64,000 nt of DNA from Candidatus Micrarchaeota archaeon (GTDB lineage Archaea > Micrarchaeota > Micrarchaeia > Anstonellales > Bilamarchaeaceae): positions 32,001 through 96,000 of the forward strand of contig JBBSVN010000010.1 of assembly GCA_038046765.1 (NCBI GenBank), read 5' to 3'. Below are positions 1 to 43,290 of this stretch, one piece after another (position 1 is the stretch's first letter; each line of letters opens with the position of its first letter). The notes beneath the pieces are model-generated. The model searched no databases. It saw only the letters and a list, made by a program, of their open reading frames with translations, and was not told where the DNA came from. Made by a program: the position numbers and the translations under genes.

Positions 1-206
1 ATTATTTTATTTGGTTTAAATGAAAATTTTTCTTCAATTTCACTATCAAGTGCATAAGCATATGCCTTTTTTCTGGCTTTTATTATTGAAAGTATTGCAA
101 GCCATATGTTACCGTAGCTAAGTGAGTGAACAAGTCTTCTGATTGTTTTTAAGTCATACTCTTTTTCAAGTTTTATTTCATTTGTGCCCTTACCTTTGAT
201 TCGCAT
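1..206 (-). CDS. PadR-family winged-helix transcriptional regulator, 5' part only (runs off window)
   Basis: Manual translation from ATG at 206: MRIKGKGTNEIKLEKEYDLKTIRRLVHSLSYGNIWLAILSIIKARKKAYAYALDSEIEEKFSFKPNKI. The RL..L...NIWL.IL and YAY.L...I...F.FKP pattern matches archaeal PadR. Divergent from the membrane-protein cluster. Confidence 0.7.
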   Translation of the reverse strand, partial: MRIKGKGTNEIKLEKEYDLKTIRRLVHSLSYGNIWLAILSIIKARKKAYAYALDSEIEEKFSFKPNKI

Positions 207-1497: not shown

Positions 1498-2609
1498 TGT
1501 CTTGCTTATGTGATTCTGCTTACTTAGAAAAAAATATGATCGCTTCAGCAAGTGACAAATTGCACAACAAAAAATTCATCTTTTTAATCGCGTTCTTTAT
1601 ATTCTCGATCTTGCCAAATCTGTCTTTTGCAGATGGCTTAACTTCATGCAGTTTAAACTACATTGATATTGCAAATAGTGGGATGGGCGCTTACATAGGC
1701 GTATCATTTATGCTTATGGTCATTTTACTTATTTTAGCATATCTATTTGGTACGATGACACAAAATGCAAATCTTCTTGCATTCTACAAAGATGAGCTTT
1801 ATCATGTATTATTTTCAGCAATACTCTTAGTGTGCATAAGCGGCATATTCTACTTTTCATGCGTTTCACTAAGTGCGTTTTTAGATTTTACACTTACCCA
1901 GCTTGGATCAAGCGCTTGTTATAGCGGTGTCGAAGCCCCTTCTACTGTTGCAAGTTGCTATTTTTCAGGTATCGAAGTCAGACTTAGAACATTTGTTTCA
2001 CAAGGGATAAAACAAAGCCTGCAAAATGAGATGGAATCAACTGTAATGCTTATGATAAATAATCCTATTACTGGTTCGACATATATGCCATTAACTGCAT
2101 ACAAAAAAGCATATGCATCTCAATTTGACATGGTTGTAAATAGCTTTGTCATGCCTGCTTTAGTGAGTATTACTATGCAAAAAACATTGATCAAAATTTC
2201 TTCCGCTCTAGTTCCGTGGCTCGTTGCTATAGCATTTTTTTTAAGGGTGTTTATGCCAACAAGACAAATGGGAAATATGCTTATTGCAGTTGGTCTTGCG
2301 CTTTATATTGTTCTTCCGACAATGTACGCAGTAAACGGTGCGATGGACGAATTGATATTTAAAGATTGCAATAGTTATAGGAGTTTAGTGGCGGATGAAG
2401 TTATGGGTGGAATTACACGAAGTGTTACTGGAACTGGTCCAAATCAGCAAGTGCAACCAGTTGTTGATGCATCAGCATGCACTTCAAACACGAGCTTTTG
2501 GATAATCGCGAGCAGCATGCCACAGGCATTTTTCCTGCCAAATTTAACTCTCGCTCTTGTAATTACCTTTATCGCAGGTATAAATAAAGCACTAAAAACA
2601 ATTGGTTGA
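1497..2609 (+). CDS. Polytopic membrane protein, paralog 2 of 6
   Basis: Motifs LAYLFG...AFYKDELYH and FLRVFMPTRQMGNMLIA..LYIVLP. TAATG overlap with paralog 1; true start may lie slightly downstream. Confidence 0.75.
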   Translation: MSCLCDSAYLEKNMIASASDKLHNKKFIFLIAFFIFSILPNLSFADGLTSCSLNYIDIANSGMGAYIGVSFMLMVILLILAYLFGTMTQNANLLAFYKDELYHVLFSAILLVCISGIFYFSCVSLSAFLDFTLTQLGSSACYSGVEAPSTVASCYFSGIEVRLRTFVSQGIKQSLQNEMESTVMLMINNPITGSTYMPLTAYKKAYASQFDMVVNSFVMPALVSITMQKTLIKISSALVPWLVAIAFFLRVFMPTRQMGNMLIAVGLALYIVLPTMYAVNGAMDELIFKDCNSYRSLVADEVMGGITRSVTGTGPNQQVQPVVDASACTSNTSFWIIASSMPQAFFLPNLTLALVITFIAGINKALKTIG

Positions 2610-2610
2610 C

Positions 2611-4893
2611 ATGAAAAAAATATTACTACTGTTATTAATTTCATTTGTGCTCTTTGCGAGTTTTACTTATGCTTTAGCTCCATCCGCAAATGTTGCAGCA
2701 GTAGATAGAGCAACTTCCAATTCTTCATTTGATCTGTTAAAAGACTGGCGTGCAATATCTCTAGCTGTAACAATGCTTGTAATTGTAATAATCGCAATCG
2801 CTTACGCTGTTGGACATGGGTTTGAAATTCCTGAATTAAAAGCATGGGCTGCAACAGAGCTCGCTCAGGCGGTCGCCACTATATTAATTATTGTTGCATT
2901 TGTAGGAGTAATTACTTTTCTTGACGGCATAACCGTTCAGATTATACAAAATTCCAATTTGCCATTTACATGTACTAATTCACAAAATTGCGCAGTACTA
3001 ACCGCAACCAGCTATTTAGATAGTTTAATCGATGTTGCAAATTCACAGGTGCTTGACCGGATAAAAGACAGCATTACAGCAGGCAGGACTGCCGGGTATA
3101 GGGGAGGAATGTATGCGACACAACTTATTTTTCCAATTCCATTATTACAAATATCCGCTTCAGGGTCTGCTGCAGCAGGTTATGTTTTAGACCTAGAGCG
3201 AAATATGCTTCTTATTGAAAACCTTGGAAACCTAATCTCTATTCTTTCATCACAGCGATTTTTTATTTCACAGATTTCATACAATGTTGCTCCAGTAATT
3301 CTTGTACTTGGTATAATTGCGCGTTCATTCTTTTTTACAAGAAAATTAGGTGGGCTTCTAATTGCGATGGCAATAGGTATTATGTATGTACTTCCGCTTA
3401 TGTATGTTGCCAATTGGATTACACTAAATATTACTCTTTTTGGAGATTCTATAATTACACCTGTTGCGCAGGATTGTCCCTTGTCATGTACTATTCTCCC
3501 GCCAAAGTTCTATTCTGGCAATCAGCCAATACAATCCAAAACAAATCTCCTTGGTTTTTATGGGATAACTACAAACCCGGCAGTTAATCAAATAAATCCC
3601 GCCATTGCTATCGCTACGCAAACTCAGTTAAATCAAATGCAGGATTTAGAAGACGGATATTTGCAAACATTAACAATTAATGGCCGAACTGCTTATTCAT
3701 GTGAAGTCGCAGCAGGCGGACCAGTTACACCAAAACAGCCTATTTTTAATGGTGTTGTTACTGGAGGTTTGCAAGATGTTATATCTGATAATTCTGATAA
3801 TTCTGATAATTCTGATACTTTTTCCTCTAATAAAAAAGTTGCATTATTTATTCCAGGAGGTTCTGGAACAGGAGGCAGCGGATCGGGAGGTTCAGGAAAC
3901 AGCAATCCATGCGGACAATGTCCTTCTAATCAAATTTGTGATAGTTCTGGGTCGCGTCCAGTTTGTGTTCCAGACCCAACTCCAAGTGGTTCTGGTATCG
4001 GTAGTTCTGGTTATTGTCCATACGCATGCAGGGAATTACCTTACCCATACAATCAACAATGTACGGGGGTCGTAGAAATAAATAATAAAAACCAAACTGC
4101 AGCACAGACAAGAACTGCATGCAGCAATTTACCTGTGGTTTGTAAAGTAATCCGTTATGTAAATCCTAAAAATCCTTACTTTGATAATGATGGAATTCCA
4201 AACACTGCTGATGATTATGTACTTGATCAATATTCTCCAAACTATCAAAGACCTGCTGGTGTTGCAGCAACTTCTTTAGTTGTACCAACATGTCCAGTGC
4301 AATGCCGAACAACTCCTCCTTTAGCAAATAACTGTATTAATAGTCAATCTGCTTCGATTACATTTAACGGTCAAACCAGAACTTATAACGGGCAATGTAC
4401 TTCTGCACAAACCTTCTGTTTGTTTACGGAAAAAGCTAATGGAGTAATTCTAGGAAATGCCCCGACTGCATGCAAAACTCCTCAGGCATCACCAGCGCAA
4501 ATGGCAAATAATTTGGCATGCGTTTCCAGTTTAGTCGCAACACAATCATGTAAATATGTAATCCCTGGAGAAAGTTTAACTGATAGTGGCATATGCGATA
4601 AATGTATTTTTGTTCCTAAAGAATTTACTTTTGATCCGCCTATTTATCAGGACTGTTCAGCAAGGTGCGGTCAAGGCAATGCCGGTCCTCCATTAATTAA
4701 TCCAGCAGAATTTTCAAGAAGAACACAGCAGTGGATGGTTGGCAGACCGGAAATTGTTTCAGTTTCAGCGCTCATGTTCCCAGCTTATGTTTTGCCACTA
4801 CTCGACATACTTGTAGTTTTAATGTTTATCCGTTCATTTTCATCAATCTTGGGTGGAGATATTGAAATCCCGGGATTAGCTAAAATATTATAA
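2611..4893 (+). CDS. Polytopic membrane protein, paralog 3 of 6, with a large Cys-rich extracellular insertion
   Basis: Motifs IAYAVG...AWAATELAQ, ARSFFFTRKLGGLLIA..MYVLP and SSILGGD. About 430 aa of Cys/Pro/Gly-rich loop before the last TM. ATG 2611 preferred over the track start of 2602. Confidence 0.78.
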   Translation: MKKILLLLLISFVLFASFTYALAPSANVAAVDRATSNSSFDLLKDWRAISLAVTMLVIVIIAIAYAVGHGFEIPELKAWAATELAQAVATILIIVAFVGVITFLDGITVQIIQNSNLPFTCTNSQNCAVLTATSYLDSLIDVANSQVLDRIKDSITAGRTAGYRGGMYATQLIFPIPLLQISASGSAAAGYVLDLERNMLLIENLGNLISILSSQRFFISQISYNVAPVILVLGIIARSFFFTRKLGGLLIAMAIGIMYVLPLMYVANWITLNITLFGDSIITPVAQDCPLSCTILPPKFYSGNQPIQSKTNLLGFYGITTNPAVNQINPAIAIATQTQLNQMQDLEDGYLQTLTINGRTAYSCEVAAGGPVTPKQPIFNGVVTGGLQDVISDNSDNSDNSDTFSSNKKVALFIPGGSGTGGSGSGGSGNSNPCGQCPSNQICDSSGSRPVCVPDPTPSGSGIGSSGYCPYACRELPYPYNQQCTGVVEINNKNQTAAQTRTACSNLPVVCKVIRYVNPKNPYFDNDGIPNTADDYVLDQYSPNYQRPAGVAATSLVVPTCPVQCRTTPPLANNCINSQSASITFNGQTRTYNGQCTSAQTFCLFTEKANGVILGNAPTACKTPQASPAQMANNLACVSSLVATQSCKYVIPGESLTDSGICDKCIFVPKEFTFDPPIYQDCSARCGQGNAGPPLINPAEFSRRTQQWMVGRPEIVSVSALMFPAYVLPLLDILVVLMFIRSFSSILGGDIEIPGLAKIL
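3784..3819 (+). repeat. 9-bp tandem repeat (TCTGATAAT)x4 encoding SDN SDN SDN SDT
   Basis: tctgataat tctgataat tctgataat tctgatact read directly. Confidence 0.9.
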
Positions 4894-4919
4894 TTGATAA
4901 ATGGTTTATGTGAACCTCT

Positions 4920-5963
4920 ATGAAAAAATTAAATTTATTTGCTTTCATTTTTGCGTTTGTTGCAATGCTCGCAATATCTACAGTTAGTTTTGCCGCCCCT
5001 CCTGCACCAAACCAATTTGACGCAAGCGGTAATTGGGTATCTACTGCTGCAATTGCCTTAATCGCAAGTGCTGCACTACTCGCCCTTATTTACATGGTCG
5101 GGCATGGGTTTGAAATAAACGAACTAAAAATGCTTGCAAACGAGGAGCTTTATCAGCTTGTTGTTACAATCGTAATCATCGGACTTCTTCTAGGAAGTAC
5201 GAGTATACTAAATTCATTCTCATCAACATTTGCCCCAAGCGGTGCTACTAATTTTCAGGATGCTGCAATTTCTGCAGTACGAGCGAATCTTGCTGATCAT
5301 CAGAGCATATATAATAATCTTAAGTCATTTAGTGTAGAGCTTGGAAAAGAATCTTCAAAAAGTTATTTTTGCAGTTTGCAAGGTGTAGGATTTTATGTAA
5401 GTCCTTGCAGTGCATTTAGCTCAATTTCGCCATCAGTTTCGCTCGCATTTCAAATTTTATCAGCTTCAATAGCTGAGTTAAATTCCCTTGACACTTTACT
5501 TAACTTTGCTAAAACTTATGGTTTTGCTGTTCTGCTTCCATTTGGAATTTTACTTCGGACATTAAAATTTACTCGGGGCGCAGGCGGATTATTTTTAGGT
5601 CTTGCAGTTTCACTTTACATTGTTCTCCCATTATTAGTTATTTTTATGGATGTCTTACTAAATCCAGCTACGGGTTATAATCCAACTGCATTTGGAATTC
5701 AGATACGTGCGCTTCCAATTCCGGAGTGCGATGAAACAAGTTTTGGCACGGTAACTGGAGGCATTTCCTATGATAATTACGATGCGGCAGTAGGTACATT
5801 CCAATCGCTTTTAAACAATGTCAAAACTTACATTTACTATGCCTTAGTTCGTGGGACAATGTTGCTTGTAGTTTCATTGTTAGGTTTCTTTTCCGCGTTT
5901 AGGGCAATTTCAAAAGTAGCAGGAGCTGAAGTTGATATATCCAGTTTGATGAGGATAAGTTAA
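4920..5963 (+). CDS. Polytopic membrane protein, paralog 4 of 6
   Basis: Signal peptide. Motifs LIYMVG...MLANEELYQ, LLRTLKFTRGAGGLFLG..LYIVLP and SKVAGAEVD. Confidence 0.78.
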   Translation: MKKLNLFAFIFAFVAMLAISTVSFAAPPAPNQFDASGNWVSTAAIALIASAALLALIYMVGHGFEINELKMLANEELYQLVVTIVIIGLLLGSTSILNSFSSTFAPSGATNFQDAAISAVRANLADHQSIYNNLKSFSVELGKESSKSYFCSLQGVGFYVSPCSAFSSISPSVSLAFQILSASIAELNSLDTLLNFAKTYGFAVLLPFGILLRTLKFTRGAGGLFLGLAVSLYIVLPLLVIFMDVLLNPATGYNPTAFGIQIRALPIPECDETSFGTVTGGISYDNYDAAVGTFQSLLNNVKTYIYYALVRGTMLLVVSLLGFFSAFRAISKVAGAEVDISSLMRIS

Positions 5964-5969
5964 TGATTA

Positions 5970-6057
5970 GCAATGAGCATTGGGCAATGGGCATTGGGCA
6001 ACGTACAGTTAGTTTCGTAGCCCACAGCTCAAGGCTCAAACGCCCAAGGCTCAAGGC
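5970..6057. repeat. Intergenic element of two opposed heptamer tandem arrays (imperfect hairpin)
   Basis: GCAATGA GCATTGG GCAATGG GCATTGG GCAACGT, then a spacer, then GCCCACA GCTCAAG GCTCAAAC GCCCAAG GCTCAAG. The arms are partly complementary (TGGGC/TGAGC with GCCCA/GCTCA). Confidence 0.8.
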
Positions 6058-6068
6058 AAAGTGATATT

Positions 6069-7202
6069 ATGGTATTAGCAAACATCTGTGCGCAAGGCGC
6101 TCAAAGTACGGTTGCATCGTTCATCTATCCATTAGTATTATCTGTTTCAGTTTTCGCAGCAATCGTAATCGGTTTAGCATACATGTTAGGTCAGTCAATA
6201 AACAATCCAAAAGTTACACTCTGGGCTAAAACAGAAGCTGTGCAATTGGTCGTTTCTGCAATTGCCGCAGTAATTATTTTACAATCCGTGGGTGTATTTT
6301 GTACAATTGATGCGATGTCAATTTATCAACTTTTTAATGTCCCGCCCCCACAAATTCCGCAGGTAGCTGGCCAGCCGCAGTCATCTATTTCGATTTATAA
6401 TGCAGCAGAACTTTATCTTGTTACGGGAGGTTCTTACGTAAAAAGTGTAGCTGATAGCGCGAGGTATCATCTTGGCGGATATAATATGCTCCAGTCATTT
6501 GGAAGAAATCTTTGTCTTGGTAGTACTACTTCACCCGTTTCTGGATTTTTAAACATAATCTTTTGTCTTTATGGAAACGGAATAATTGGTGGCGGCAGTA
6601 GCAGTGCTGGAATTGGTACTGGCACAAGTATACGTCCTGATTCTGGATACGGGTTTCTTTCAGCGGCAGTTGGTTTTGCATTTAACTCTGCACTGTTTTC
6701 TTACGTTTCTATTTTGAACTATTTATTTATTTTTAAATATATTTTTAGCGGGTTTGTTTTATTCTTTTTGCCACTAGGTATTTTCTTTAGATCATTTCCA
6801 TACCTAAGAGGATTTGGTTCATTATTGATGTCTGTTTCAATTGCGTTTCTGTTTGTTTATCCACTGATGCTTGCGTTCTTTTACATTGATATTGGAGCAA
6901 CAAATTCGATACTCGCTCCAAAGAATTCTCCAGCTTTATTATACTCATCTGATTCGCCAGGAAAAGTAGGGATTGCAGCAGTTACTGGTTTTAAAAATAG
7001 CATTTATGATGATGTGTTTGACAAACCCTCTTCAAATAATGGTGAACAAAGTTTCGAAGTTCTTAAGTTAACAGGAAATGCATTTTTAGTTGGGGTTTTT
7101 ATTCCAAGTTTAGCTCTTTTAAGTGCAGCTGCAGCAGTTTCTTATATTAACAGATTCCTAGGTGAAGAAGTAGATTTAAGTAGGATAGTTCAGATAGTTT
7201 AG
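6069..7202 (+). CDS. Polytopic membrane protein, paralog 5 of 6
   Basis: Motifs LAYMLG...LWAKTEAVQ, FFRSFPYLRGFGSLLMS..FVYP and NRFLGEEVD. Confidence 0.78.
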   Translation: MVLANICAQGAQSTVASFIYPLVLSVSVFAAIVIGLAYMLGQSINNPKVTLWAKTEAVQLVVSAIAAVIILQSVGVFCTIDAMSIYQLFNVPPPQIPQVAGQPQSSISIYNAAELYLVTGGSYVKSVADSARYHLGGYNMLQSFGRNLCLGSTTSPVSGFLNIIFCLYGNGIIGGGSSSAGIGTGTSIRPDSGYGFLSAAVGFAFNSALFSYVSILNYLFIFKYIFSGFVLFFLPLGIFFRSFPYLRGFGSLLMSVSIAFLFVYPLMLAFFYIDIGATNSILAPKNSPALLYSSDSPGKVGIAAVTGFKNSIYDDVFDKPSSNNGEQSFEVLKLTGNAFLVGVFIPSLALLSAAAAVSYINRFLGEEVDLSRIVQIV

Positions 7203-7225
7203 CAATTATAATATGTGATTTATCT

Positions 7226-8296
7226 ATGCCAAATCCAATTTGTTCCGGTTTCATGTGCAATTTCGAACCTTCTATGCTTGGGGGTTTAGCTCCCGATATG
7301 CAATGGTTTGTAATTGCCTTAACTGCCTCAATATTAATTGTAATAATTCACGCAACAATACTCGCATTTTCACGTGCGCTTAATATGAATGAACTAGAAC
7401 GCTATGCAAAATCAGAAATTTTAAATGCGGTTGCCACTTCTTTAATGGTAATATTTTTAGTTTCAACACTTGGTGCTATGGAGAGTTTTGCACTAAACTC
7501 TTTTCTTGGGTGCGGTCCTGGTGGAACTAATTGCCCAACATTAACTTGCGGGGGATCACCAGTACAAATTAGTGACCTTAAATCATCAGTTGATTTACTT
7601 AAGTGCAGACTTAGTGATAAGGCCGCTGGTTTTGCGCAAGTTCAACAACAGATTATACAAACTTCGGTAAGTGGAAATCCATTTAGTGTTTTTAACAGAT
7701 TACAATTCTATCTGGGACTAATGGGTGTGCCAATATTTTCCGGACAATACGTTACTGCATGGTTTAAGGAAGCAGAAACATATCGTTTACTTAATAGTTT
7801 TATTACTACATTTTTAATTGGTTCAAATACTTTAATTGTAGCTGCTGAATACGTAAAAAATAACATGCTTTCATTCTATCTTCCAGTTGGACTGCTACTA
7901 AGGGCATTTCCTTATACAAGAGGCATAGGTGCATTCTTTATTGCACTAGCTTTAGGGATGTACTTTGTTTATCCTGTTTTATACATAATAACTGATCCTG
8001 GGTTTGTAAAACCCAGTTACACTCCTTCACAAGCTCCTCCAGCTAGTGGCCTTTGTTACCCAACATTTAGTTCAATTAGTTTTGCGGTTTCTTCACAAAA
8101 TACTCTTTCCCCATCAGGTGGCAGTACTGATTTATCTGCTAGTGCGCTTGCTAGTGATTTATCTCAGGTTTACACATCATTATTACTTCAGCCGTTTATT
8201 GTATTTGCCATGACAATGGTGTTTGTCAGATACGCAACATACATTTTTGGTGGCGAGCCAGCCGATATTTTAAGAGCAGTTGCAAAAGTGGTTTAA
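7226..8296 (+). CDS. Polytopic membrane protein, paralog 6 of 6
   Basis: Motifs ERYAKSEILN, LLRAFPYTRGIGAFFIA..YFVYP and TYIFGGE. Confidence 0.78.
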   Translation: MPNPICSGFMCNFEPSMLGGLAPDMQWFVIALTASILIVIIHATILAFSRALNMNELERYAKSEILNAVATSLMVIFLVSTLGAMESFALNSFLGCGPGGTNCPTLTCGGSPVQISDLKSSVDLLKCRLSDKAAGFAQVQQQIIQTSVSGNPFSVFNRLQFYLGLMGVPIFSGQYVTAWFKEAETYRLLNSFITTFLIGSNTLIVAAEYVKNNMLSFYLPVGLLLRAFPYTRGIGAFFIALALGMYFVYPVLYIITDPGFVKPSYTPSQAPPASGLCYPTFSSISFAVSSQNTLSPSGGSTDLSASALASDLSQVYTSLLLQPFIVFAMTMVFVRYATYIFGGEPADILRAVAKVV

Positions 8297-33646: not shown

Positions 33647-34456
33647 TTAAAATAAATTCGAAAGCAGGCCTGCAAACGAGTAAACTATGTTTTCAAAGAA
33701 TGGGAATATTAATACTCCGTTGTTGGTTGCTTTGTAATCTGCTAATATATCTGTCCTTACGTTTAATGTAATGTTTGTATCCTTCTGGATAAGTGAGCTT
33801 GCCTTTGATTTAACCTTTAATGTGACCTTATAACTCTCTTCTTCTCTATTAGTTATTTCGTAAAATACTGTCTTTGTGCTTTGTGCTGCAACGTAAACTG
33901 GTTTTTTGTACTCCCATCTTTTTATTCCTTCACTTGATACTTCAAATACATCTGCTGCTGAACCTTTATTTGTTATTGTTATTACATACCTGGCTGGCTG
34001 GTCTGGCCCAACCGTTATCTCTGTGGGTGTTATAGACGTTTCTAAAACATCCTTCGTTATTTGTACTCTGACTTTAAAACTGACATTATTTAATTGCTCC
34101 CCGTAATTTTGATCAATGGTCGTTATTTCTGCACTATATACTCCTTCTTTTGCATTTTCATCAGCAGTTATTTCTACTTGCAAGGGATTACCATATATTT
34201 TACTATTTTTTGCTTTCCAGTTTGGGGGTAACGCGGTTACGACGGCCTGGTCATATTGGCCTCCTTTGTCAAATTTTCCCCCTGTTATAACTTTTGGTTC
34301 GATGCTTACAAATATCGTTTGACCCGGCCCAATTTTACCTAAGTCTATTGTTTCTGCGCCTTTTAATTGTGCCTTTATCGGCTGAATTAGTTCTATTGCA
34401 AAACTTACTGAAAATAATAAAACGAAGATTGCCAGAAATGTTGTATATTTATTCAT
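33647..34456 (-). CDS. Secreted protein with Ig-like domains
   Basis: Signal peptide, beta-rich (ITITNKGSAADVFEVS), amphipathic C-terminus. Confidence 0.65.
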   Translation of the reverse strand: MNKYTTFLAIFVLLFSVSFAIELIQPIKAQLKGAETIDLGKIGPGQTIFVSIEPKVITGGKFDKGGQYDQAVVTALPPNWKAKNSKIYGNPLQVEITADENAKEGVYSAEITTIDQNYGEQLNNVSFKVRVQITKDVLETSITPTEITVGPDQPARYVITITNKGSAADVFEVSSEGIKRWEYKKPVYVAAQSTKTVFYEITNREEESYKVTLKVKSKASSLIQKDTNITLNVRTDILADYKATNNGVLIFPFFENIVYSFAGLLSNLF

Positions 34457-34511
34457 GTCTTATTATCGCTAATAAATATTAAAAAGCCGCTCTTTGTTAG
34501 TTCTTTGTTAA

Positions 34512-35489
34512 TTATTGCCTTAATGGATTAAGCATCCGTTCTTCTATTACGCAAATGAATGTACTTTTTCCTATAATCCCTGCAAACTTAGTCTTAATTT
34601 CGCTCATAAAATTATGTAGTTCGACATTGTCCCTTACAATTATGTCTAGTTCAATATCGTGGCTTCCGATCGTCTTGTTTAGAAAAATCAGGTCATCATT
34701 TTCTATACAAAATTGCAGAAATTGTTTTTCTTTTTCTGGTGTAATACTTCTAAAGTTAATTAATAATTTGTAATAATTAAATCCTAATTTTCTGGCATCA
34801 AACCATGCAGTGTAGCCTAAGATGTACTCCTTCTCTATAAGTTTTTTTATTCGGTATTGTACTGCATCTGGAGTTAATTCTACTTTACTAGCTAGTTCAA
34901 CTGTCGTAGTTCGCGCGTTCTGATAGAGTAAAGACAATATTTTCATATCTGTCTTGTCTGGTTTTTCTACATTCACAATTTTCTCTAGTGGGAGCTCGGG
35001 GTGGCGTTCGCTTTCTAATGCCTTATTCCATGATAAATATGTTTGATAGATGGTTGTTGCTATTGTTTTCTCTACTATTTTTTCACCAAATCTTGCAGTC
35101 ATTATTGCTGCTGCCTTTTCTACTTCGATTTCGTCTTGCGCTACTATTCGCCAAAGAACATCATATTCGCCTTCGCAAATCGTTCCCCATAAAGTTCTAG
35201 GATATTCCTCAAAAAGCGTGAGTACATTTTCCTCGGTTTTTTTATCCATGCCGTGGAATTTGAAATAAAGGCGATACCCTTTAAGCCCTAATTTAGCGAG
35301 GTTTACATCTGCAAAAAGTAGTGAAATTAGGCCTGATTCTTTAAGTTGGGTTAATCTTCGCTCTACTGCACTGCTAGATAATTTTAGTTTCTCACCAAGC
35401 TTTGTGAAGCTTTCGCGTGAATTAAGATAAAGTAACGTTAGAAGTTGTTTGTCTTTTTTGTCTAGTTTAGTTGTGTTACTAGTCATCAC
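34512..35489 (-). CDS. Tandem-duplicated Lrp/AsnC transcriptional regulator
   Basis: Two HTH+RAM units: LDKKDKQLL..L..NSR and DKTDMKIL..L.QNAR. Confidence 0.88.
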   Translation of the reverse strand: MMTSNTTKLDKKDKQLLTLLYLNSRESFTKLGEKLKLSSSAVERRLTQLKESGLISLLFADVNLAKLGLKGYRLYFKFHGMDKKTEENVLTLFEEYPRTLWGTICEGEYDVLWRIVAQDEIEVEKAAAIMTARFGEKIVEKTIATTIYQTYLSWNKALESERHPELPLEKIVNVEKPDKTDMKILSLLYQNARTTTVELASKVELTPDAVQYRIKKLIEKEYILGYTAWFDARKLGFNYYKLLINFRSITPEKEKQFLQFCIENDDLIFLNKTIGSHDIELDIIVRDNVELHNFMSEIKTKFAGIIGKSTFICVIEERMLNPLRQ

Positions 35490-35964
35490 TTAATATCGCC
35501 TCCTCTTCCCCTTTTGAAAATACATAGTAGTCCTTATTTTTCAAGTCCGTCAAGATAATTTTTAATTCTATATTAGAAACTATCTCTGTTTTTTTGCACA
35601 TTAAAAGAAAACTTGCTAAACTTATGGCTACAAGTCCCTCTTTTTCTGCTTTTTCTAGTGCCTTTTTATCATCAATAAGTAAAATTCCATTTTTTTCTTT
35701 GGCAAGTTTAATACAAGCCATTTCTCCTTTACCGAATGTTTGGTTACTGCTAATTTCCATTGGAATAACTAGAATTTTAGATATATTCTCCTTGTCATAG
35801 CTAAAAAGATAAGCTACACTCATAAAAAAAGGACTCTTTTGAATTTCTTCTAATACCTGAATAGGGGCTAAAATTTGTTCAATTTCAAAAAGTCTGAAAA
35901 TAAGTTCAATTCTATTTATTTTAAGCATGCTACTGATAAAACCCGTGTCAACAACTACTATCAT
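35479..35964 (-). CDS. PIN-domain (VapC-like) toxin
   Basis: VVVDTG, GKGEMACI.LA and LLIDD..A. Confidence 0.85.
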   Translation of the reverse strand: MIVVVDTGFISSMLKINRIELIFRLFEIEQILAPIQVLEEIQKSPFFMSVAYLFSYDKENISKILVIPMEISSNQTFGKGEMACIKLAKEKNGILLIDDKKALEKAEKEGLVAISLASFLLMCKKTEIVSNIELKIILTDLKNKDYYVFSKGEEEAILSDD

Positions 35965-36294
35965 TTATTTCGCCTTTTTTATCGCCTTTAAAGCCAGATT
36001 TGCTCGTTTTTTTACTTCTTCTGTAGTTTCATGTTTCCACAATTTTCTTTCCACAAGAATTTTTTTCATTTCATCATAAGACACGTCAGTTATTTCTGCA
36101 GCCCTACCGGTTGAAATCTTATTTTCTTTATACAGTTCCAAAGCTATTGCTGTTCTTACATCTCTTCTTACTGCTAGATATGCCCTTATTGCATCTCTTA
36201 AGAATTCGCTAGTGCTTGAATAAAGACCTGTTTTTGGTATTGCCTCAATTTCTTCTTTCATTAACGGAGGTAAAGTAAAACTTTCAACTGCCAT
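35965..36294 (-). CDS. RHH + UPF0175 antitoxin
   Basis: YSSTSEFLRDAIR (RHH) and AIALELYKENKISTGRAAEI (UPF0175). Confidence 0.85.
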   Translation of the reverse strand: MAVESFTLPPLMKEEIEAIPKTGLYSSTSEFLRDAIRAYLAVRRDVRTAIALELYKENKISTGRAAEITDVSYDEMKKILVERKLWKHETTEEVKKRANLALKAIKKAK

Positions 36295-36394
36295 AATATC
36301 ACCTAGATATTACTTAGATAATATATTTAATAAAACTTTCGCTAAACTCTGTTTTATCTTATAAAATTTATTTATCCTAAAATATTTATATATT

Positions 36395-36463
36395 TTTCGG
36401 TTTATTTGCGTTTTTTAATGAAAGATAATAAATATATTGAATGTTTAGTTATAATTGGTGATA
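36395..36463 (+). promoter_or_regulatory. Duplicated promoter region, copy 1
   Basis: 25-bp exact core GTTTTTTAATGAAAGATAATAAATA (36410-36434) shared with 39334-39358, plus similar flanks. Confidence 0.7.
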
Positions 36464-37318
36464 ATGATGGTAAACGAAACTGAAATTAGAAGTTTGATTG
36501 AAGATTTAGGTACAGTTCCTTATGAAATGAGAGAACCAATTGAACAAAAAATTCTAGAAATGGGTGCACCAGTTGTTTCATTACTACTTGATTATATAAA
36601 AAGAAATTATGCTCATCCAGAAAAATCATCAGCAAGTCATGCTAAAATCTTAGGTGAGTTCAGAAAAAAAGGCATTGTTCAAGCTACTAGTGCTTTGCTT
36701 GAACTATTAGATATTTTGCCATTTGAAAAATCAGTTCATGTTCGTCATGTTCTTGACTATTTAGAAACTTGGGCGATGCGTTGTGAAGAATTAACTCAAG
36801 AGAAGCTTTTACCCATCTTAAAGCGAGCATCAGATCGTCTACATAAAGATGTTGATCCAATTATGTATGCACATGACGATGCGGGTAAAACAATATTCCA
36901 TATTACATTTTCCTTAGGTCTGCGTGGGAATATTGATGTTTTACCTATTTATATGGAAGCCTGGGGACAACACCTTTTTGCATCTTGTAATTCTAGTCTT
37001 CAGGAAAGATGTGTAAATGTTTTAGGTTCCATCATCAAGAGAAGTTCGCCAGAAGAGGTTATGAAATACAAAGATCAAATCGAAAAATTTATTCAAAGGT
37101 TAGAAATTCTTGTACTTGAAGATAGTGTATTACCATCTGATACAATTTTTTTATCTGAATTTGAAAGGACTAAGCAGGTGGTAAAAGAAAAATTTCAATC
37201 CTCATCAGTCAATCCTCTAGCAAAAGATGGCGAAACACTAGATGCAAAACATTTAACTGCTAGACCCGTTGCAGGAGGTGGGCAAGCTCCTCACGTTGCA
37301 AGGAGGATGTTTAGATAA
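36455..37318 (+). CDS. HEAT-repeat-like helical protein with basic C-terminal tail
   Basis: LIEDLG.....REPIEQKILEMGAPVV..LL (HEAT/PBS-like). Tail AKDGETLD...ARRMFR. Start is probably ATG 36464 or 36467. Confidence 0.6.
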   Translation: MVIMMVNETEIRSLIEDLGTVPYEMREPIEQKILEMGAPVVSLLLDYIKRNYAHPEKSSASHAKILGEFRKKGIVQATSALLELLDILPFEKSVHVRHVLDYLETWAMRCEELTQEKLLPILKRASDRLHKDVDPIMYAHDDAGKTIFHITFSLGLRGNIDVLPIYMEAWGQHLFASCNSSLQERCVNVLGSIIKRSSPEEVMKYKDQIEKFIQRLEILVLEDSVLPSDTIFLSEFERTKQVVKEKFQSSSVNPLAKDGETLDAKHLTARPVAGGGQAPHVARRMFR

Positions 37319-37372
37319 TTTTCCTATTTGTTTCCTTTCTTTTTTAGTTCAAAATTAAAAATTATTTAACTG

Positions 37373-37999
37373 GTGATAATCATGTCAAAACTTAAACAAA
37401 AAATTGCATCCTCGCTTCTATGTACTGCAATTATTGTTGCACCTAAGTTCAGCGAAGCAGAAATCTTAAAAGAAGCTAAAATTGGTGCTGTTGTTGGTAC
37501 TAATACTAATGGCAGATCTGTTTTTACAGGAGTAAATTCACAAGTAAATCTGAATATTGGACCTAACACTAGTTTTACTGTTGAAGGCGGTCCTAGTATC
37601 GATAATTTACAAAATGCTGATTTTCAAAAAGGGAAAATTGCAATTTCTCATCGCGAGTTTGGCTTCAGAGTTAAACGCGATTTAAGTTTTGGAAACAAAG
37701 GCTCGTTTGGTGCTTTTTTTGATTCTCATTTTTTAACTTTCGGCATCGATAAGGGTCTTTTCAATGGAGGCGCAGTATTCACATTAAATAAAGGGTTTAA
37801 TTTTAAGAGTTTATCCATACTTCCTGAATTTTTTGTTACTGCTGGGTTTAATTCAAATGAAATTGGTTCAGACTTAAGTTTATCTGTTCCTATATCTAAA
37901 CATTTTTCATTAGATGGTTTAGTTATTTTCTCATTAATTCGAGAAAGTGGTACCATCGGTACAGTTAATGCATCAGTTTCTTTTAATTATATTTTCTAA
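37373..37999 (+). CDS. Secreted all-beta protein resembling an outer-membrane beta-barrel
   Basis: Signal peptide ending SEA, alternating hydrophobic/Gly strands, C-terminus VNASVSFNYIF. Confidence 0.55.
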   Translation: MIIMSKLKQKIASSLLCTAIIVAPKFSEAEILKEAKIGAVVGTNTNGRSVFTGVNSQVNLNIGPNTSFTVEGGPSIDNLQNADFQKGKIAISHREFGFRVKRDLSFGNKGSFGAFFDSHFLTFGIDKGLFNGGAVFTLNKGFNFKSLSILPEFFVTAGFNSNEIGSDLSLSVPISKHFSLDGLVIFSLIRESGTIGTVNASVSFNYIF

Positions 38000-38060
38000 T
38001 ATTTTTCTTTTCTTTTTCCTTCAATAATCTACATTTTAATTAGAAGCTTCATTTGTTTTT

Positions 38061-38582
38061 TTATTCTTTATGAAATTTCTTTTTGTCCTTGTTAATTTGG
38101 GCTTTTGAAGCAAACTTTCCATAAGGTGTTTCCTTCACCTTGCTTTTATCAATTAGTTTATCCTTATGTAAAATTATTGTATTTCCATAATATCCAAGCA
38201 ATTTGGCTATTTTCTTTGCCCTAAAAGTTTTTTTGTTTAAATTTCTTTCAATCCTTTTTTTCAAGTCTATTCTCTTACTGATTATTCCATTTACAATATG
38301 CACTGTCTGTGATGGCCTAGGGTTAATTCCAAAAAAATTTTCTGCAGTAGCACAACTATAATAAAATTCTTTAGTTTTAAGGAACATTCGAACAGTTTTG
38401 GACAATATTGCTAATGGTTTTTCAATAAACCAAGCATCTCTTTCTTCTTTACTTGGTATATAATATATTCCTTTAAATGGTGTTGGAAATATATCTAAAC
38501 TCGCGCTCATATTCTTTATTTCTTTTGAAGTTAAACCTTCTTCTAGTAATTGTTTGTAACTTATAATTTGTTTAGGCAACAT
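38061..38582 (-). CDS. AbiEi-like antitoxin/regulator
   Basis: PFKGIYYIPS.EER and YYS..TA..F.G. Overlaps the AbiEii-like gene. Confidence 0.6.
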   Translation of the reverse strand: MLPKQIISYKQLLEEGLTSKEIKNMSASLDIFPTPFKGIYYIPSKEERDAWFIEKPLAILSKTVRMFLKTKEFYYSCATAENFFGINPRPSQTVHIVNGIISKRIDLKKRIERNLNKKTFRAKKIAKLLGYYGNTIILHKDKLIDKSKVKETPYGKFASKAQINKDKKKFHKE

Positions 38583-39165
38583 GATTAATTACCTCTATAA
38601 ATTCTATGTATTGTTTTTCTTCTAACATTAAATCCTTTAACTCCTCTAAATTCAGTGGGGCACCACACATCTTTATAATTTTTTTAATTTCTCCTAGGTC
38701 TTTTTTCAAGTAATTTAAAATCATAAAAATATCATACAAATCTCTTGCTTCTTTTCTTGAGGCATAACTGATATTTTTTAGTTCTAACAAGTCTTCTAAA
38801 GAGGCTACCTTGATGTTGTTGTTTCCGATTGCTTTATCTTCGACTCTTTTAATTTCTGTTTCAGGACTAAAAATTTCTATTTTTATGCTAGTGTCTTCAA
38901 ATTGAATTACAAATTGATTTCTATACGCGCTTCTAAGGGTCTGATATCCTTTTTTGCTTAGCTTTCCTTTAAGTTCATTTTTTAGTTTTATTTCATCTTC
39001 TTTTGTAGTTGGAACAAAGTCTAAATCTATACTTATCCTGTGTTTTAGATAAAAAAGAGCTAAAGCTGTTCCACCTACAAGTATTAGCTTGTCATCTGTG
39101 CATTCAGCTACATCCTCTATTATTTCGAGTATTTTTTTGTACTTTAAATAAAGCCTTTCATCCAT
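38572..39165 (-). CDS. AbiEii/AbiGii nucleotidyltransferase toxin
   Basis: LVGGTALALFYLKHRISIDLDF and K.....SRKEARDLYDI. Confidence 0.9.
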   Translation of the reverse strand: MDERLYLKYKKILEIIEDVAECTDDKLILVGGTALALFYLKHRISIDLDFVPTTKEDEIKLKNELKGKLSKKGYQTLRSAYRNQFVIQFEDTSIKIEIFSPETEIKRVEDKAIGNNNIKVASLEDLLELKNISYASRKEARDLYDIFMILNYLKKDLGEIKKIIKMCGAPLNLEELKDLMLEEKQYIEFIEVINHVA

Positions 39166-39203
39166 ATTTGTATTTCTATCCGAACATTTATATACGTTTG
39201 CAC

Positions 39204-39226
39204 TAGGTTAAACTTTCTTTAACCTA
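39204..39226. promoter_or_regulatory. Inverted-repeat operator upstream of the AbiE-like operon
   Basis: TAGGTTAAA-CTTTC-TTTAACCTA (perfect 9-bp arms), just upstream of a minus-strand TATATAAA box at about 39187-39194. Confidence 0.6.
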
Positions 39227-39318
39227 ATAATATTATAATCGTTTGACTAATTTTCTTTCGATGTTGTCTTTTCCTAGTTAATATTTTTTTCCAATTATCC
39301 AAATAAATAGCTATTTTC

Positions 39319-39387
39319 TTTCGGTTTTCTTCTGTTTTTTAATGAAAGATAATAAATAATCTGATTGCATGTTATATTTAGTGATAA
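39319..39387 (+). promoter_or_regulatory. Duplicated promoter region, copy 2
   Basis: Matches 36395-36463 with a 25-bp exact core. Confidence 0.7.
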
Positions 39388-39408
39388 AATTAGTAAAACT
39401 GATAAGAG

Positions 39409-40134
39409 GTGGGAATTATGGCTGATGTTTTAACTAATAAAGAAACCAACAAAGACGAAAAATTTGTTAATTGGGGAACAAACTGGGCAACAGTACTCCC
39501 TGAACTAATTGGAGAAGACCTAAAACAAAAAATTTACGATAATACTCTATTCAATCTTATGGGAGATCTAAAAGGAAAAACAATACTAGATTATGGTTCT
39601 GGTCCAGCAGTTATTGCATCTAGGGCAAAAAAAATCGGTGCAGATGTAAAAGTATTTGATATTTCATCAGAAATGCTAAAGGCATCTGCAAATAAAATTG
39701 GCATATACAATGTTTATCATAAAATTGATGAAATACCTAGCAATCATTTTGACGTTGTCCTGTGCAATCTGGTTGTATGTATAGTTCCAGAAGAAGCTGA
39801 AGTTGCAAGAATTGCTCTTAATCTAAGATTAGCTCTTAAGGAAGATGGGGTAACTTACATTGGTTTTTGCAATCCAAAAATTTTCAATGTTCCAGAATCC
39901 ATAATTGACTATCGAATGCAAACTGGTAGGAAATATGCTGAATGCCATCAATATCAAAAAATCAAAAAAGAAGGCGGTTACAAAATTGTTGAAATGCATA
40001 GACCAACAGAATGGTACGAAACAATTTTCAAGAGTGTTGGGCTAAATGTTACATCCGTTCATCTGACTCCAAGTTATGACTTAAATGGAAGGCAAATTAA
40101 TGATTTTGTTATCCTAGAAGTTAGAAAAAATTAG
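39409..40134 (+). CDS. Class I SAM-dependent methyltransferase
   Basis: ILDYGSGPA, VFDISSEML and FDVVLCNLV. Confidence 0.88.
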   Translation: MGIMADVLTNKETNKDEKFVNWGTNWATVLPELIGEDLKQKIYDNTLFNLMGDLKGKTILDYGSGPAVIASRAKKIGADVKVFDISSEMLKASANKIGIYNVYHKIDEIPSNHFDVVLCNLVVCIVPEEAEVARIALNLRLALKEDGVTYIGFCNPKIFNVPESIIDYRMQTGRKYAECHQYQKIKKEGGYKIVEMHRPTEWYETIFKSVGLNVTSVHLTPSYDLNGRQINDFVILEVRKN

Positions 40135-40144
40135 GTGATTTATT

Positions 40145-40516
40145 ATGAAAATGAAAGTCGGACAAAAGGAAAAAATGAGTATCGCTAAATGCAGTTTTGT
40201 CAGGCATGCTTTATTTGGATCTGCTCTGTTAGTTTCTGCTGCAAGTGGGTGTGAAAGTAGAAAGAGTGAAGAACCAGAAAATATGACACAGATGACTTTT
40301 CTTAACGGTGCAAAAATCTCAGGATGTATGTTTAAGGCAGATAAGAAAAATCCACTTGAGAAAGATGAGCTTGCGATACATATTGTCTTGTCAGATGAAG
40401 TGCCTGCTGGAGATACTCTAGCTGTGCGTAACATAAGTTCTCAATTAGGGGTAGTTCAAATCAACGGATTTGGGGCAAATCGAAAATTAAAATTTCCGAA
40501 ATGTAACAGAGAATAA
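40145..40516 (+). CDS. Short lipoprotein with S-layer-like motif, possibly truncated
   Basis: ASGC lipobox. IVLSDEVPAGDTLA resembles the IVVG..A.A.D..A motif of euryarchaeal/DPANN S-layer-like proteins. Confidence 0.45.
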   Translation: MKMKVGQKEKMSIAKCSFVRHALFGSALLVSAASGCESRKSEEPENMTQMTFLNGAKISGCMFKADKKNPLEKDELAIHIVLSDEVPAGDTLAVRNISSQLGVVQINGFGANRKLKFPKCNRE

Positions 40517-40540
40517 TAATGCTGCAAGGGGTGGATAAAA

Positions 40541-41851
40541 ATGCTAAATGTATTAAAAACAAAACTGTCAGATTATTTCGAGTTTGCCAAGCATAAAGCT
40601 AATTTCAAAACTGAAATTTTAGCTGGTATTTCTACATTCTTGGCACTATCCTACATTTTCATTGTAAATCCTGCAATATTAGGTGAAGCCGGTATGGCTA
40701 AGGGTTTTGTTTTCTTTGCCACAGTATTTGCCTCTTGTATTGTAACTTTAGCTATGGGGTTATACGCAAAGAAGCCCCTAGTTTTAGCTCCTGGTTTGGA
40801 GATGAATGGTTATATTGCATTTTTTGTAATTGGCGCGCTAGGTTTTAGTTGGCAGGGAGCTTTAGGTGCAGTATTCTGGGAAGGGGTTTTATGTATCCTG
40901 TTTACTTTGCACGAAATGAGAGTAAGGATAATCAAGGCAGTTCCTGCGAGTATGAAAGCTGGTTTATCATTAAGCGTCGGCGTATTTGTCGCAATAATCG
41001 GTTTAAAGGTTTCTAATATTTTACTATATCAAGGAATTGTCCTATCTGGAATAGGTGCGCTCCTTTCAAAAGAAGCCTTGGTTGTTTATTTTGGGCTAGC
41101 TGTTATTTTGATACTTGAGAGATTGAAGATAACTGGCTCGGTTTTAATCAGTATAATTCTTGCTACTTTGCTTGCTTATTACTTCGGTTTAGGGGTAAAG
41201 CCTGAAGAAGTATCATTGCTTTCTCAAGGATGGCTTGATGGCTTTTTGAAGTTTGATTTAGGAGTCATCTTAGATCCAAGAATGTGGAGTATTATTCTCA
41301 CGCTTTTTGTAATTGATTTTTATGGTAGTATTGCTAAGTTCATTGGATTAACCAGGAACACTTCCATAGTAGATGAAAAGGGGGACATGCCGCAGATAAA
41401 AGAAGCTATGCTCGTTGATGGAGCGGGTACTATAATCGGCGCGGGAGCTGGAACAAGTAGCATAATCACATATGTAGAAAGCGCGGTCGGTATAGGTGCT
41501 GGCGGAAGAACCGGATTGACTGCAGTAGTTTGCGGCTTACTTATGTTGTCATTCCTTTTATTACCGAACCTAGTAGGATTAGTACCTGTTATATCTGCTG
41601 CTGGTGCGCTATTATTTGTCGGATTAACTCTTATGCCTTCTAGAAAAGAACTTACAACATACTCAAATGTTGAGAAAGCGTCTATTCTTGCAATGGCGCT
41701 TACAGTATTATTTACATTTGCATTAGACAAAGCTATGCTGATTGGTTTTGGAACTTATATTATTGGCTCAGTTCTAGCTGGTAAATCAAAGCAAGTTGAC
41801 ATCTATTTGGTTATTTCAACTGCATTAATTTTGCTTGCATTAGTGTTTTAG
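40541..41851 (+). CDS. NCS2/AzgA-family purine permease
   Basis: TEILAGISTFL.LSYI.IVNP.IL, APG, YVESAVGI.AGGRTGLTA. Confidence 0.92.
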   Translation: MLNVLKTKLSDYFEFAKHKANFKTEILAGISTFLALSYIFIVNPAILGEAGMAKGFVFFATVFASCIVTLAMGLYAKKPLVLAPGLEMNGYIAFFVIGALGFSWQGALGAVFWEGVLCILFTLHEMRVRIIKAVPASMKAGLSLSVGVFVAIIGLKVSNILLYQGIVLSGIGALLSKEALVVYFGLAVILILERLKITGSVLISIILATLLAYYFGLGVKPEEVSLLSQGWLDGFLKFDLGVILDPRMWSIILTLFVIDFYGSIAKFIGLTRNTSIVDEKGDMPQIKEAMLVDGAGTIIGAGAGTSSIITYVESAVGIGAGGRTGLTAVVCGLLMLSFLLLPNLVGLVPVISAAGALLFVGLTLMPSRKELTTYSNVEKASILAMALTVLFTFALDKAMLIGFGTYIIGSVLAGKSKQVDIYLVISTALILLALVF

Positions 41852-41889
41852 CAGGTGTAATTATTTTTCTTTCTTTTCTTATTAAAATA

Positions 41890-41966
41890 TTACATTTTAG
41901 TAAATCCATTCGTCAAGATGTATACATTATAGTAAATCAATTTGCTAAAATGTAATAAATTAGCTA
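41890..41966. repeat. 77-bp direct repeat, copy A (two palindromic subunits)
   Basis: 71/77 identical to 43213-43289 by manual alignment. TTACATTTTAG...CTAAAATGTAA inverted ends. Confidence 0.92.
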
Positions 41967-41974
41967 GTTTTTGC

Positions 41975-43180
41975 CTATTTTTTATCTTTTTCTACTAAAC
42001 CAACCATAAACAGAGGTCTTTTCATTTCTTCGATTACTCCAGGATGCGTTAATATAATCTGTTTCTTTGCTTTAAAACCTTTAAACTGGCTTGCGCTTTT
42101 ATTTACTCCGCCTATTTCAAAAACAGTTTCCCCAATCAAATAATCAGGTATCTTTTCTCCTCTTTCTGATTTTAAATAGTTTATTTCAAAATCAAGATTC
42201 TGTATCGCTTCAGCAAAAAAATCTTCTCTTATTGCGCCTATGCATTCATCGTAATTTTTATAAAGCAGACGATAAGGTAATGCAAGCAGTATCTTAGGTT
42301 CCTTTAGGACATTTGTTCCTTTAGGAAAAATGCATCTTAAAACAAATGTTTTTTCAAGCACTGTAGCATATTTCTCTACCTTATACTTTGTTGAGCCAAT
42401 ATTTTTTGCAACATTTGTGTAGCTAGTATCTTCAACAGATGATTTACCAAGAAATGAGATCATTTTTCTTACTTCTACAGCTTCTTCAGAAGTTACCCTC
42501 CCGCCTAAAACTAAATCATTTCTTATAATTGTTTCTAGGATGTTGAAAAATAAAGATATTGTTTCTATTTTTCCCATCGTAAAAGGATAATTCCTTCCTT
42601 TTAAGTATAATTCAAAAAGAGGTTCTAGGTGTAAAATTTTTCCATAATATTTTTTTGCGATTTCCATATCCGCTAAATCTTCAATGTTGAACTTTGGCAA
42701 AATTTCATCTTTTTCAAAATAAATAAATTCCCTAAATGAAAACGGGTGTACCTTTATTATCCTCATTCTTCTTGAAAGGTCTGCAGATAACTCATGAAGG
42801 GAAATCGAAGAAGAACTAGTGCAAACTACGTTTATTTTTAAAAAGTCATAAATTCTTTTTAATTCAACTTCAAAGTTTGGATAGTTGTGTATTTCATCTA
42901 TAAATAGTAATTTTGTATCTTTTTCTTCCAGCTCCTTTGCTAGTTCAAATAAATTAGTATCGATACCACCTGTTTCCAAAGATACATAAAAAGAAGATTC
43001 AGTTTCGTATAAAAGCTGCTTTAGTATAGTTGTTTTTCCAGCCCCCCTTGATCCGATCAATGCGATAAATGTTCTTTCTGGCAGGTATTTTTTAATGTCT
43101 TCATAAACAAATCTTTTTTTTGTATATGTTACACCTTCTGCTCGTGCTTTAGCATTTAGTTCATTTAGTATCGGTTGCAT
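41975..43180 (-). CDS. AAA_14-type ATPase with C-terminal DUF4143/PD-(D/E)xK-like domain
   Basis: GSRGAGKTT, LFIDEIH, SSSS, PFSFREF and C-terminal PDY....FEIGG..K. Confidence 0.88.
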   Translation of the reverse strand: MQPILNELNAKARAEGVTYTKKRFVYEDIKKYLPERTFIALIGSRGAGKTTILKQLLYETESSFYVSLETGGIDTNLFELAKELEEKDTKLLFIDEIHNYPNFEVELKRIYDFLKINVVCTSSSSISLHELSADLSRRMRIIKVHPFSFREFIYFEKDEILPKFNIEDLADMEIAKKYYGKILHLEPLFELYLKGRNYPFTMGKIETISLFFNILETIIRNDLVLGGRVTSEEAVEVRKMISFLGKSSVEDTSYTNVAKNIGSTKYKVEKYATVLEKTFVLRCIFPKGTNVLKEPKILLALPYRLLYKNYDECIGAIREDFFAEAIQNLDFEINYLKSERGEKIPDYLIGETVFEIGGVNKSASQFKGFKAKKQIILTHPGVIEEMKRPLFMVGLVEKDKK

Positions 43181-43212
43181 AATCTATAAACAGCACAACA
43201 ATATTTAAATCT

Positions 43213-43289
43213 TTACATTTTAGTAAATCCATTTTCCAAGATGCATACATTATAGTAAATTAATTTTCTAAAATGTAATAAATTAGCTA
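43213..43289. repeat. 77-bp direct repeat, copy B, abutting the ATPase promoter
   Basis: Matches copy A. Minus-strand TTTAAATA box at about 43202-43209 is adjacent. Confidence 0.92.
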
Positions 43290-43290
43290 A

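Follow-up and report, generated by a model that had tools for sequence, protein, structure and literature searches.

A gene of 205 codons in the chromosome of a Candidatus Micrarchaeota archaeon probably encodes a small transmembrane beta-barrel, and we tentatively read this protein, with somewhat less than even confidence, as a pore delivered not to the archaeon's own membrane but to that of a partner cell. The protein stands outside every described family of outer-membrane proteins (OMPs), and its working would be porin-like if the fold holds. Single-chain transmembrane beta-barrels are regarded as the hallmark both of outer membranes of the bacterial type and of BAM, the machinery that inserts them, and a small barrel where no BAM was found would mean BAM-free insertion, the disputed second membrane of Micrarchaeota, or the use of a partner's machinery. 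Each of these answers touches open questions, namely the envelope of Micrarchaeota and whether DPANN archaea have bacterial hosts, and the 179 residues of the predicted barrel are small enough for direct testing. The DNA analysed here, called the window, is the whole stretch of 64,000 nucleotides taken from contig JBBSVN010000010.1 of assembly GCA_038046765.1; coordinates carrying a contig or locus label lie elsewhere.

The barrel gene is a real, intact and native accessory gene of the Micrarchaeota chromosome. An earlier note, made from the letters of the window, placed its frame at 37373-37999 on the forward strand; this frame is open, but its start is more likely the ATG at 37382 than the GTG at 37373, because the latter sits within the GGTGA ribosome-binding motif (Table 1). 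The resulting reading frame, 37382-37999, gives the product of 205 amino acids. Of the 1162 genes of this genome, 109 have GGTGA no farther than 16 nt from their first ATG. The frame is unbroken from the signal region through the last strand, and the chance of a 205-codon open frame at the given base composition is 2.7e-7. The gene falls at the 92nd percentile of the genome for codon adaptation and at the 3rd for GC3. Since all similarity to other proteins has been lost and 205 codons nevertheless stay open, the gene is most simply taken to be under selection. It is probably co-transcribed with the 284-aa gene upstream, from which it is separated by 63 nt and for which neither a family nor a paralog was found. 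The 49-nt promoter-like repeat precedes two transcription units of the accessory segment and has a third, weak match elsewhere with 5 mismatches. A promoter common to the barrel genes was looked for and not found, and no RNA run was among the listed sequencing runs that share words with this stretch.

Table 1. Coordinates of the barrel gene, its surroundings and further candidates (window positions unless a contig or locus is given).
Feature	Position	Strand	Remarks
Accessory segment, 8.8 kb	34457..43290	.	between the conserved 269-aa gene and herA
Conserved exported Ig-like 269-aa gene, function unassigned	33647-34456	-	present in 37/40 family genomes
Promoter-like element, 49 nt	36395..36443	+	84% repeat at 39319-39367, before the methyltransferase gene
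Upstream orphan gene, 284 aa	36464..37318	+	co-oriented, helical by eye, without signal peptide
GGTGA ribosome-binding motif	37372..37376	+	5 nt ahead of ATG 37382
Predicted signal peptide, residues 1-26	37382..37459	+	by eye and hydropathy; cleavage guessed after Ala26
Predicted transmembrane beta-barrel, 179 aa	37460..37996	+	ESM Atlas and sequence pattern
Twelve hand-assigned strands	residues 31-41, 46-59, 63-74, 81-90, 93-103, 107-114, 117-126, 130-141, 144-157, 161-171, 175-186, 194-205		
Last strand, partial beta-signal	37961..37996	+	Phe -1, Tyr -3, Phe -5, Val -7, Ser at -6
Second small candidate P0005, 263 aa	C2:19159-19950 (L013:5160-5951)	-	12 hand-assigned strands, similar lengths
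Larger orphan, 526 aa	C11:6993-8573 (L016)	+	signal-like start, barrel-like by eye
Larger orphan, 697 aa	C8:33214-35307 (L017)	-	signal-like start, barrel-like by eye
OMP-like protein of a same-class Micrarchaeote, 357 aa	L011:811-1884 (G100:C2)		signal-bearing, textbook beta-signal
Lipoprotein-like protein, 856 aa	C16:2067-4637 (L014)	-	weak SLT lytic-transglycosylase domain, E 5e-4

By eye a signal peptide is plausible at the N-terminus, but it is weak: a basic n-region is followed by an h-region at residues 8-20, Pro21 and Ser-x-Ala at 24-26, and the Ala/Ser-rich h-region has a best 11-residue mean hydropathy of 2.26. The composition and the alternation described in the earlier note were both borne out. 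Past residue 30, G, F, S and N make up 46% of the chain, the top value among 1306 proteins, and the hydrophobic i/i+2 pattern of the mature part was matched by 3 of 2000 shuffles. Moment-based alternation statistics were reached by 43 and 62 of 2000 shuffles, and an initial, cruder strand score lacked significance, being reached by 198 of 1000 shuffles. In alternation the mature part ranks 7th of the 1306 proteins, and with six others higher the pattern is not unique. The chain ends, as had been quoted, in ASVSFNYIF with Phe at -1 and Tyr at -3. Its description as a BAM-type beta-signal was overstated: the aromatic-x-aromatic end (Tyr203, Phe205) is there, but Ser200 takes the place of Gly at -6, and residue -2 is not basic, unlike in the published motifs. 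These have been given as GXX-aromatic-X-aromatic and LGLGYRF, and the classic motif is absent from some OMPs (PMC13067283, PMC10629564). A strict C-terminal pattern fits 1 of 1500 proteins and, having been written from the query itself, is no test.

Evidence for the fold has come mainly from the ESM Atlas, where the full chain resembles unnamed Pseudomonadota clusters and OMP_b-brl clusters with feature scores of 0.96-0.97, a level to which about 1 in 100 shuffled proteins also gets. The Atlas's own model, of moderate quality (pTM 0.55, pLDDT 0.59), matches clusters of OMP_b-brl/YfaZ/DUF481, Porin_4 and KdgM/NanC with TM 0.60-0.68 over 169-187 residues. Residues 27-205 alone had features at 0.94-0.95 and best named matches in a single clan in 10 of 10 cases, as one third of shuffled proteins also do, and the two Atlas queries count as one source based on a language model. 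AlphaFold, run on the single sequence without an alignment, gave pLDDT 35 and no barrel and was uninformative. The strands in Table 1 were assigned by hand, which is partly circular; they are 8-14 residues long with links of 2-7 residues, and they place 53 hydrophobic and 3 charged residues among the 69 of one face, and 12 Gly, 28 Ser/Thr/Asn/Gln and 14 charged residues among the 68 of the other. Gly amounts to 12% of the protein versus 6% of the proteome, and Glu plus Lys to 9.5% versus 15.8%. In a combined score of alternation, Gly and aromatic residues, the protein ranks first of 1390 ORFs. According to the standard barrel formula, the backbone of a 12-stranded barrel would lie about 11 angstrom from the axis and so measure about 22 angstrom across, and because long loops are absent the lumen would be open. 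The outer-membrane barrel fold claimed earlier is thus backed by the Atlas and by the sequence pattern but not by an independent confirmation, the AlphaFold model being uninformative, and we regard the protein as probably a transmembrane barrel.

The same data could also describe a soluble or surface-attached beta-rich protein, either an up-and-down sheet or barrel that keeps its hydrophobic face inside or a filament subunit, whose outer-membrane look would be convergence; we consider this rather unlikely. It would agree with the AlphaFold model lacking a barrel (though that model is uninformative), with the missing family match, with the non-significant first strand score and the Atlas pLDDT of only 0.59, and with alternation of equal strength in other proteins of the genome that are probably soluble. 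However, every named Atlas neighbour, by features and by structure, belongs to an outer-membrane barrel family, and the polar face, rich in Gly/Ser/Asn and poor in Glu/Lys, resembles a pore lumen more than a face in contact with solvent. In addition, the chain stops exactly on an aromatic-x-aromatic strand, and the second small candidate of the genome stops on Phe.

Relatives of the protein were searched for in several collections. Nothing beyond the gene's own copies was found in a set of 5.8 billion proteins, at near and longer lengths, and no relative beyond itself among 1.84 billion cluster representatives. The sole matches are two frameshifted copies of the gene, single records of about 13.8 kb that are broken at the same place, and the frameshifts are probably read errors. 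Metagenome, genome and viral contigs held no credible relative, the gene is present in none of 98 family genomes, and no match was obtained in Pfam, NCBIfam, PHROG or PADLOC, nor in PDB by sequence. With the profile HMMs of OMP_b-brl, YfaZ, DUF481 and KdgM, no family was hit at E up to 1. A repeat protein (P0003; 35% over 68 residues, E 3e-4) was rejected as a relative, and of 400 phylum genomes searched, 7 gave matches (E 0.01-0.05), all of which proved on inspection to be unrelated or off-frame. The literature searched, mostly non-subscription, held no report of outer-membrane-type barrels in Micrarchaeota, nor did the available part of PMC6349945; the nearest published mention is a single sentence pointing to a possible, distant relative of PopA in Altiarchaeales (PMC12228718).

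A decaying, functionless bacterial or phage OMP gene left by horizontal transfer, which had been offered as one explanation, is very improbable. The gene does share its accessory segment with genes for defence and for toxin-antitoxin systems, many of its Atlas structural neighbours are viral or bacterial clusters (which is not evidence of transfer), the two database variants are frameshifted, and a protein of another genome (L011) shows that OMP-like genes occur in this class. Against decay stand the intact frame, the host-like codons and the archaeal-type ribosome-binding motif, and the billions of proteins and cluster representatives searched contain no donor, so that the gene would have diverged far and still be open. 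The further barrel candidates described below disfavour it as well.

The genomic setting indicates that the gene belongs where it was found. The window lies on a 123-kb contig, and the genome measures 1.5 Mb, with 89.7% completeness and 0.15% contamination. In 25 of 29 loci the conserved 269-aa gene adjoins elp3, and herA lies within 1.5 kb of it in 16 of the 29 loci examined and within 300 nt in 9. The gap between the 269-aa gene and herA is an insertion hot spot. In the present genome the segment filling it carries an Lrp regulator, a PDC-S70 pair, the 284-aa orphan and the barrel gene, an AbiE pair, a methyltransferase, a lipoprotein-like orphan, a membrane protein and a PDC-S01 ATPase, and AbiE, PDC-S70 and PDC-S01 are defence-type genes. 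The lipoprotein-like orphan (40145-40516, forward strand, 123 aa) stands between the methyltransferase and the 436-aa membrane protein, and its single weak match is to an Rz-like spanin (E 0.07). Tandem 32-nt palindromic repeats are found at 41883-41962 beside the PDC-S01 ATPase gene.

It is extremely improbable that misassembly or mis-binning has attached bacterial DNA to an archaeal contig, the event that the earlier note wished to see excluded, as the length of the contig and the low contamination argue against it. Both flanks consist of Micrarchaeota genes that are neighbours in relatives: a complete genome of the same family (G051) has homologs of 24 of the 56 window genes, among them those at 268-8296, with the flanks in matching order, and this synteny disfavours contamination. 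The G+C content of the barrel gene (32.5%) is close to that of the flanks (33.3 and 34.0%), that of the segment being 32.3%. Moreover, three sequencing runs contain all sampled words of 36400-38100, although they may be the source sample; the small shares of words in further groundwater runs are left out of account.

A second small exported candidate ending in Phe was detected on another contig of the genome (C2). Its signal resembles that of the barrel gene (basic, Ile-x-Ala/Ser-Ser, Cys, Ala-Pro, Ala) and is followed by a polar linker, and its end, Gly-Val-Glu-Arg-His-Phe, has Gly at -6 and a terminal Phe. By single-sequence AlphaFold it reached pLDDT 31. The global alignment score of the two small candidates was reached by 3 of 1000 plain shuffles and by 108 of 1000 pattern-preserving shuffles, and the pair is the best non-self match among 1162, by a small margin. 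They do not match each other by phmmer at E up to 1, and a MAFFT alignment sets them two strands out of register. That they are paralogous is suggested by these comparisons of sequence but unproven.

Two larger orphans, on contigs C11 and C8, have by eye helical N-terminal halves and amphipathic beta C-terminal halves, and their ends are not Phe. The combined score ranks the C2 candidate 3rd and the C11 candidate 5th of 1390 ORFs, and no relatives were found for either, so both are orphans. Since one more small and two large candidates exist in the genome, the barrel gene is not a lone remnant. In the complete genome G051 the same score gave one large candidate and no small barrel with signal and Phe; the score is insensitive, having missed the OMP-like protein L011 too. 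The latter, judged by eye, appears to consist of two small barrels in tandem, with weak OMP_b-brl and Opacity matches, and no close relative of it was found in genome contigs. When 401 genomes of the phylum were searched with PF13505, 3 had weak matches, L011 being one of these; all stayed below cut-off, and none was in this genome. Long proteins with barrel-like C-termini occur in other genomes (L062:6869-8845 in G051, L119 in G050, L118 in G085, L120 in G086, L009 in G300), and those of two other genera are kept within the genus. A common family for the large candidates was rejected for now, as its profile retrieved only congeners of the seeds (5 of 99) and leave-one-out was not significant. 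A helical motif ahead of the barrel is seemingly common to the C8 protein and the long proteins, without statistical support.

Machinery for insertion was looked for as well. Omp85/BamA was found neither in this genome (0 of 1, 89.7% complete) nor in 351 genomes of the phylum, with controls above cut-off in 7 of 14, and this genome gave no POTRA match. An S-layer protein is encoded (PF05124, E 3e-16). An outer membrane built by the archaeon's own BAM is disfavoured by these results.

A barrel in the archaeon's own envelope could instead do without BAM, inserting spontaneously or through some other insertase, either in the cytoplasmic membrane at a contact site or in a true second membrane; this we hold to be fairly unlikely. 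The fold evidence from the Atlas and the hand-assigned faces applies to it equally, several barrel-like proteins exist per genome and also in other genera, and the cell's own Sec suffices for export without a special delivery route. The lack of a terminal Phe in the larger candidates and of Gly in the present beta-signal is expected if BAM is not reading these ends. Thin-section TEM of ARM-1 and tomography of ARMAN were interpreted as an inner plus an outer membrane (PMC8784108, PMC4243693), but later cryo-tomography made the outer layer of ARM-1 an S-layer (PMC11329633), and an S-layer gene is present here. Furthermore, a core porin should be conserved, yet the gene is missing from all family genomes searched and sits within an accessory island. 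An open pore in an energised cytoplasmic membrane is harmful, and this too speaks against the archaeon's own envelope as the destination.

We tentatively favour a pore for the membrane of a partner, partly because of this harm and partly because the protein and its sister candidate end in Phe while no BAM was found at home. A patchy, fast-evolving gene in a variable island is as expected at a host interface. The precursor is predicted to be cleaved after Ala26 and to form a barrel of 12 strands that is hydrophobic on the outside, has a lumen lined by small polar residues and carries neither plug nor long loop. Delivery would occur at cell-cell contact, and a diderm partner's own Sec and BAM, reading the terminal Phe, would carry out the insertion; alternatively it could be spontaneous, as reported for Bdellovibrio PopA in prey. 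Small solutes would then leak through the pore to the symbiont, and the fast turnover of the sequence would reflect the host interface. The missing Gly of the beta-signal, the short loops and a fold drawn from one language-model source count against a partner pore. The partner membrane of the earlier note survives as an idea, but none of the present results shows a Gram-negative partner. In its boldest form, which is unlikely, the proposal would be that groundwater Micrarchaeota live on diderm bacteria and obtain their food through the delivery of private, fast-evolving barrel precursors, from which host Sec and BAM build archaeal pores in the outer membrane. If true, this would be a cross-domain hijack of outer-membrane biogenesis, and such sequences would mark those DPANN archaea whose hosts are bacteria.

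There is little that points to a bacterial partner. The cultivated Micrarchaeota described in PMC11329633 and PMC8784108 live on archaea. In other DPANN groups, enzymes that lyse murein were interpreted as a sign of bacterial prey (PMC9723730, PMC12352652). The 856-aa SLT protein, which has a homolog in G051, is a possible sign of contact with peptidoglycan, and this genome gave no match to M23, amidase, PG-binding or NlpC/P60 families. An exported orphan (C4:87624-88445, forward strand, L019) with Cys/His motifs resembling NlpC/P60 by eye was rejected, Pfam, NCBIfam and PDB giving no support. About forty proteins share a long basic n-region and a weak Ala-rich h-region, many of these signals ending in a lipobox-like Cys; most of those scanned are orphans, and 18 of 20 proteins chosen from or near the set have no Pfam family above cut-off. 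The set has the appearance of a large orphan secretome. Since the S-layer protein has a weak Ala-rich signal too, such a signal alone does not mean that a protein is host-directed.

Among known systems, the protein is most like OMP_b-brl (PF13505), YfaZ (PF07437), DUF481 (PF04338) and KdgM/NanC (PF06178), sharing with them a predicted signal, about 180 residues of amphipathic strands and an aromatic-x-Phe end. KdgM/NanC channels have 12 strands, which fits the hand count. It differs from these families in having no HMM match, no Gly in the beta-signal, very short loops and an archaeal genome in which no Omp85 was found. Prototypical OMPs assembled by BAM are closed antiparallel barrels with an even number of strands and a hydrophobic belt facing outward. 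Outer loops of OMPs typically have 11-25 residues and the periplasmic turns are short (PMC10629564), whereas all the hand-assigned links here have 2-7 residues.

Among the structural neighbours in the Atlas are several Uroviricota clusters of 180-230 aa, and in this respect the protein is like the OMPs of phages. Those of the Lom/Ail type are barrels of an entity that has no BAM itself and are assembled by the Sec and BAM of the host. The protein is unlike them in having no PHROG match and no relative on viral contigs; besides, phage proteins are made within the host cell itself, but one made by an archaeon would need delivery. Ihomp1 of Ignicoccus hospitalis is small, oligomeric and helical and not a single-chain beta-barrel, and it is by this description of Ihomp1 that the two are set apart. 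A title cited in PMC4243693 presents it as the protein that forms pores in the outer membrane of an archaeon.

Bdellovibrio PopA (Bd0427), and Neisseria PorB in mitochondria, are OMPs that have been moved into the membrane of another cell (PMC12228718). The superfamily of PopA comprises oligomeric, porin-like barrels that enclose a lipid-trapping chamber. PopA is larger, with about 350 aa, is pentameric and starts out in the outer membrane of the predator itself, where BAM assembles it, and neither a sequence link between it and the present protein nor a PDB sequence match was found. What PopA may offer is a functional model by analogy, in which one cell makes a barrel that ends up in the membrane of its partner.
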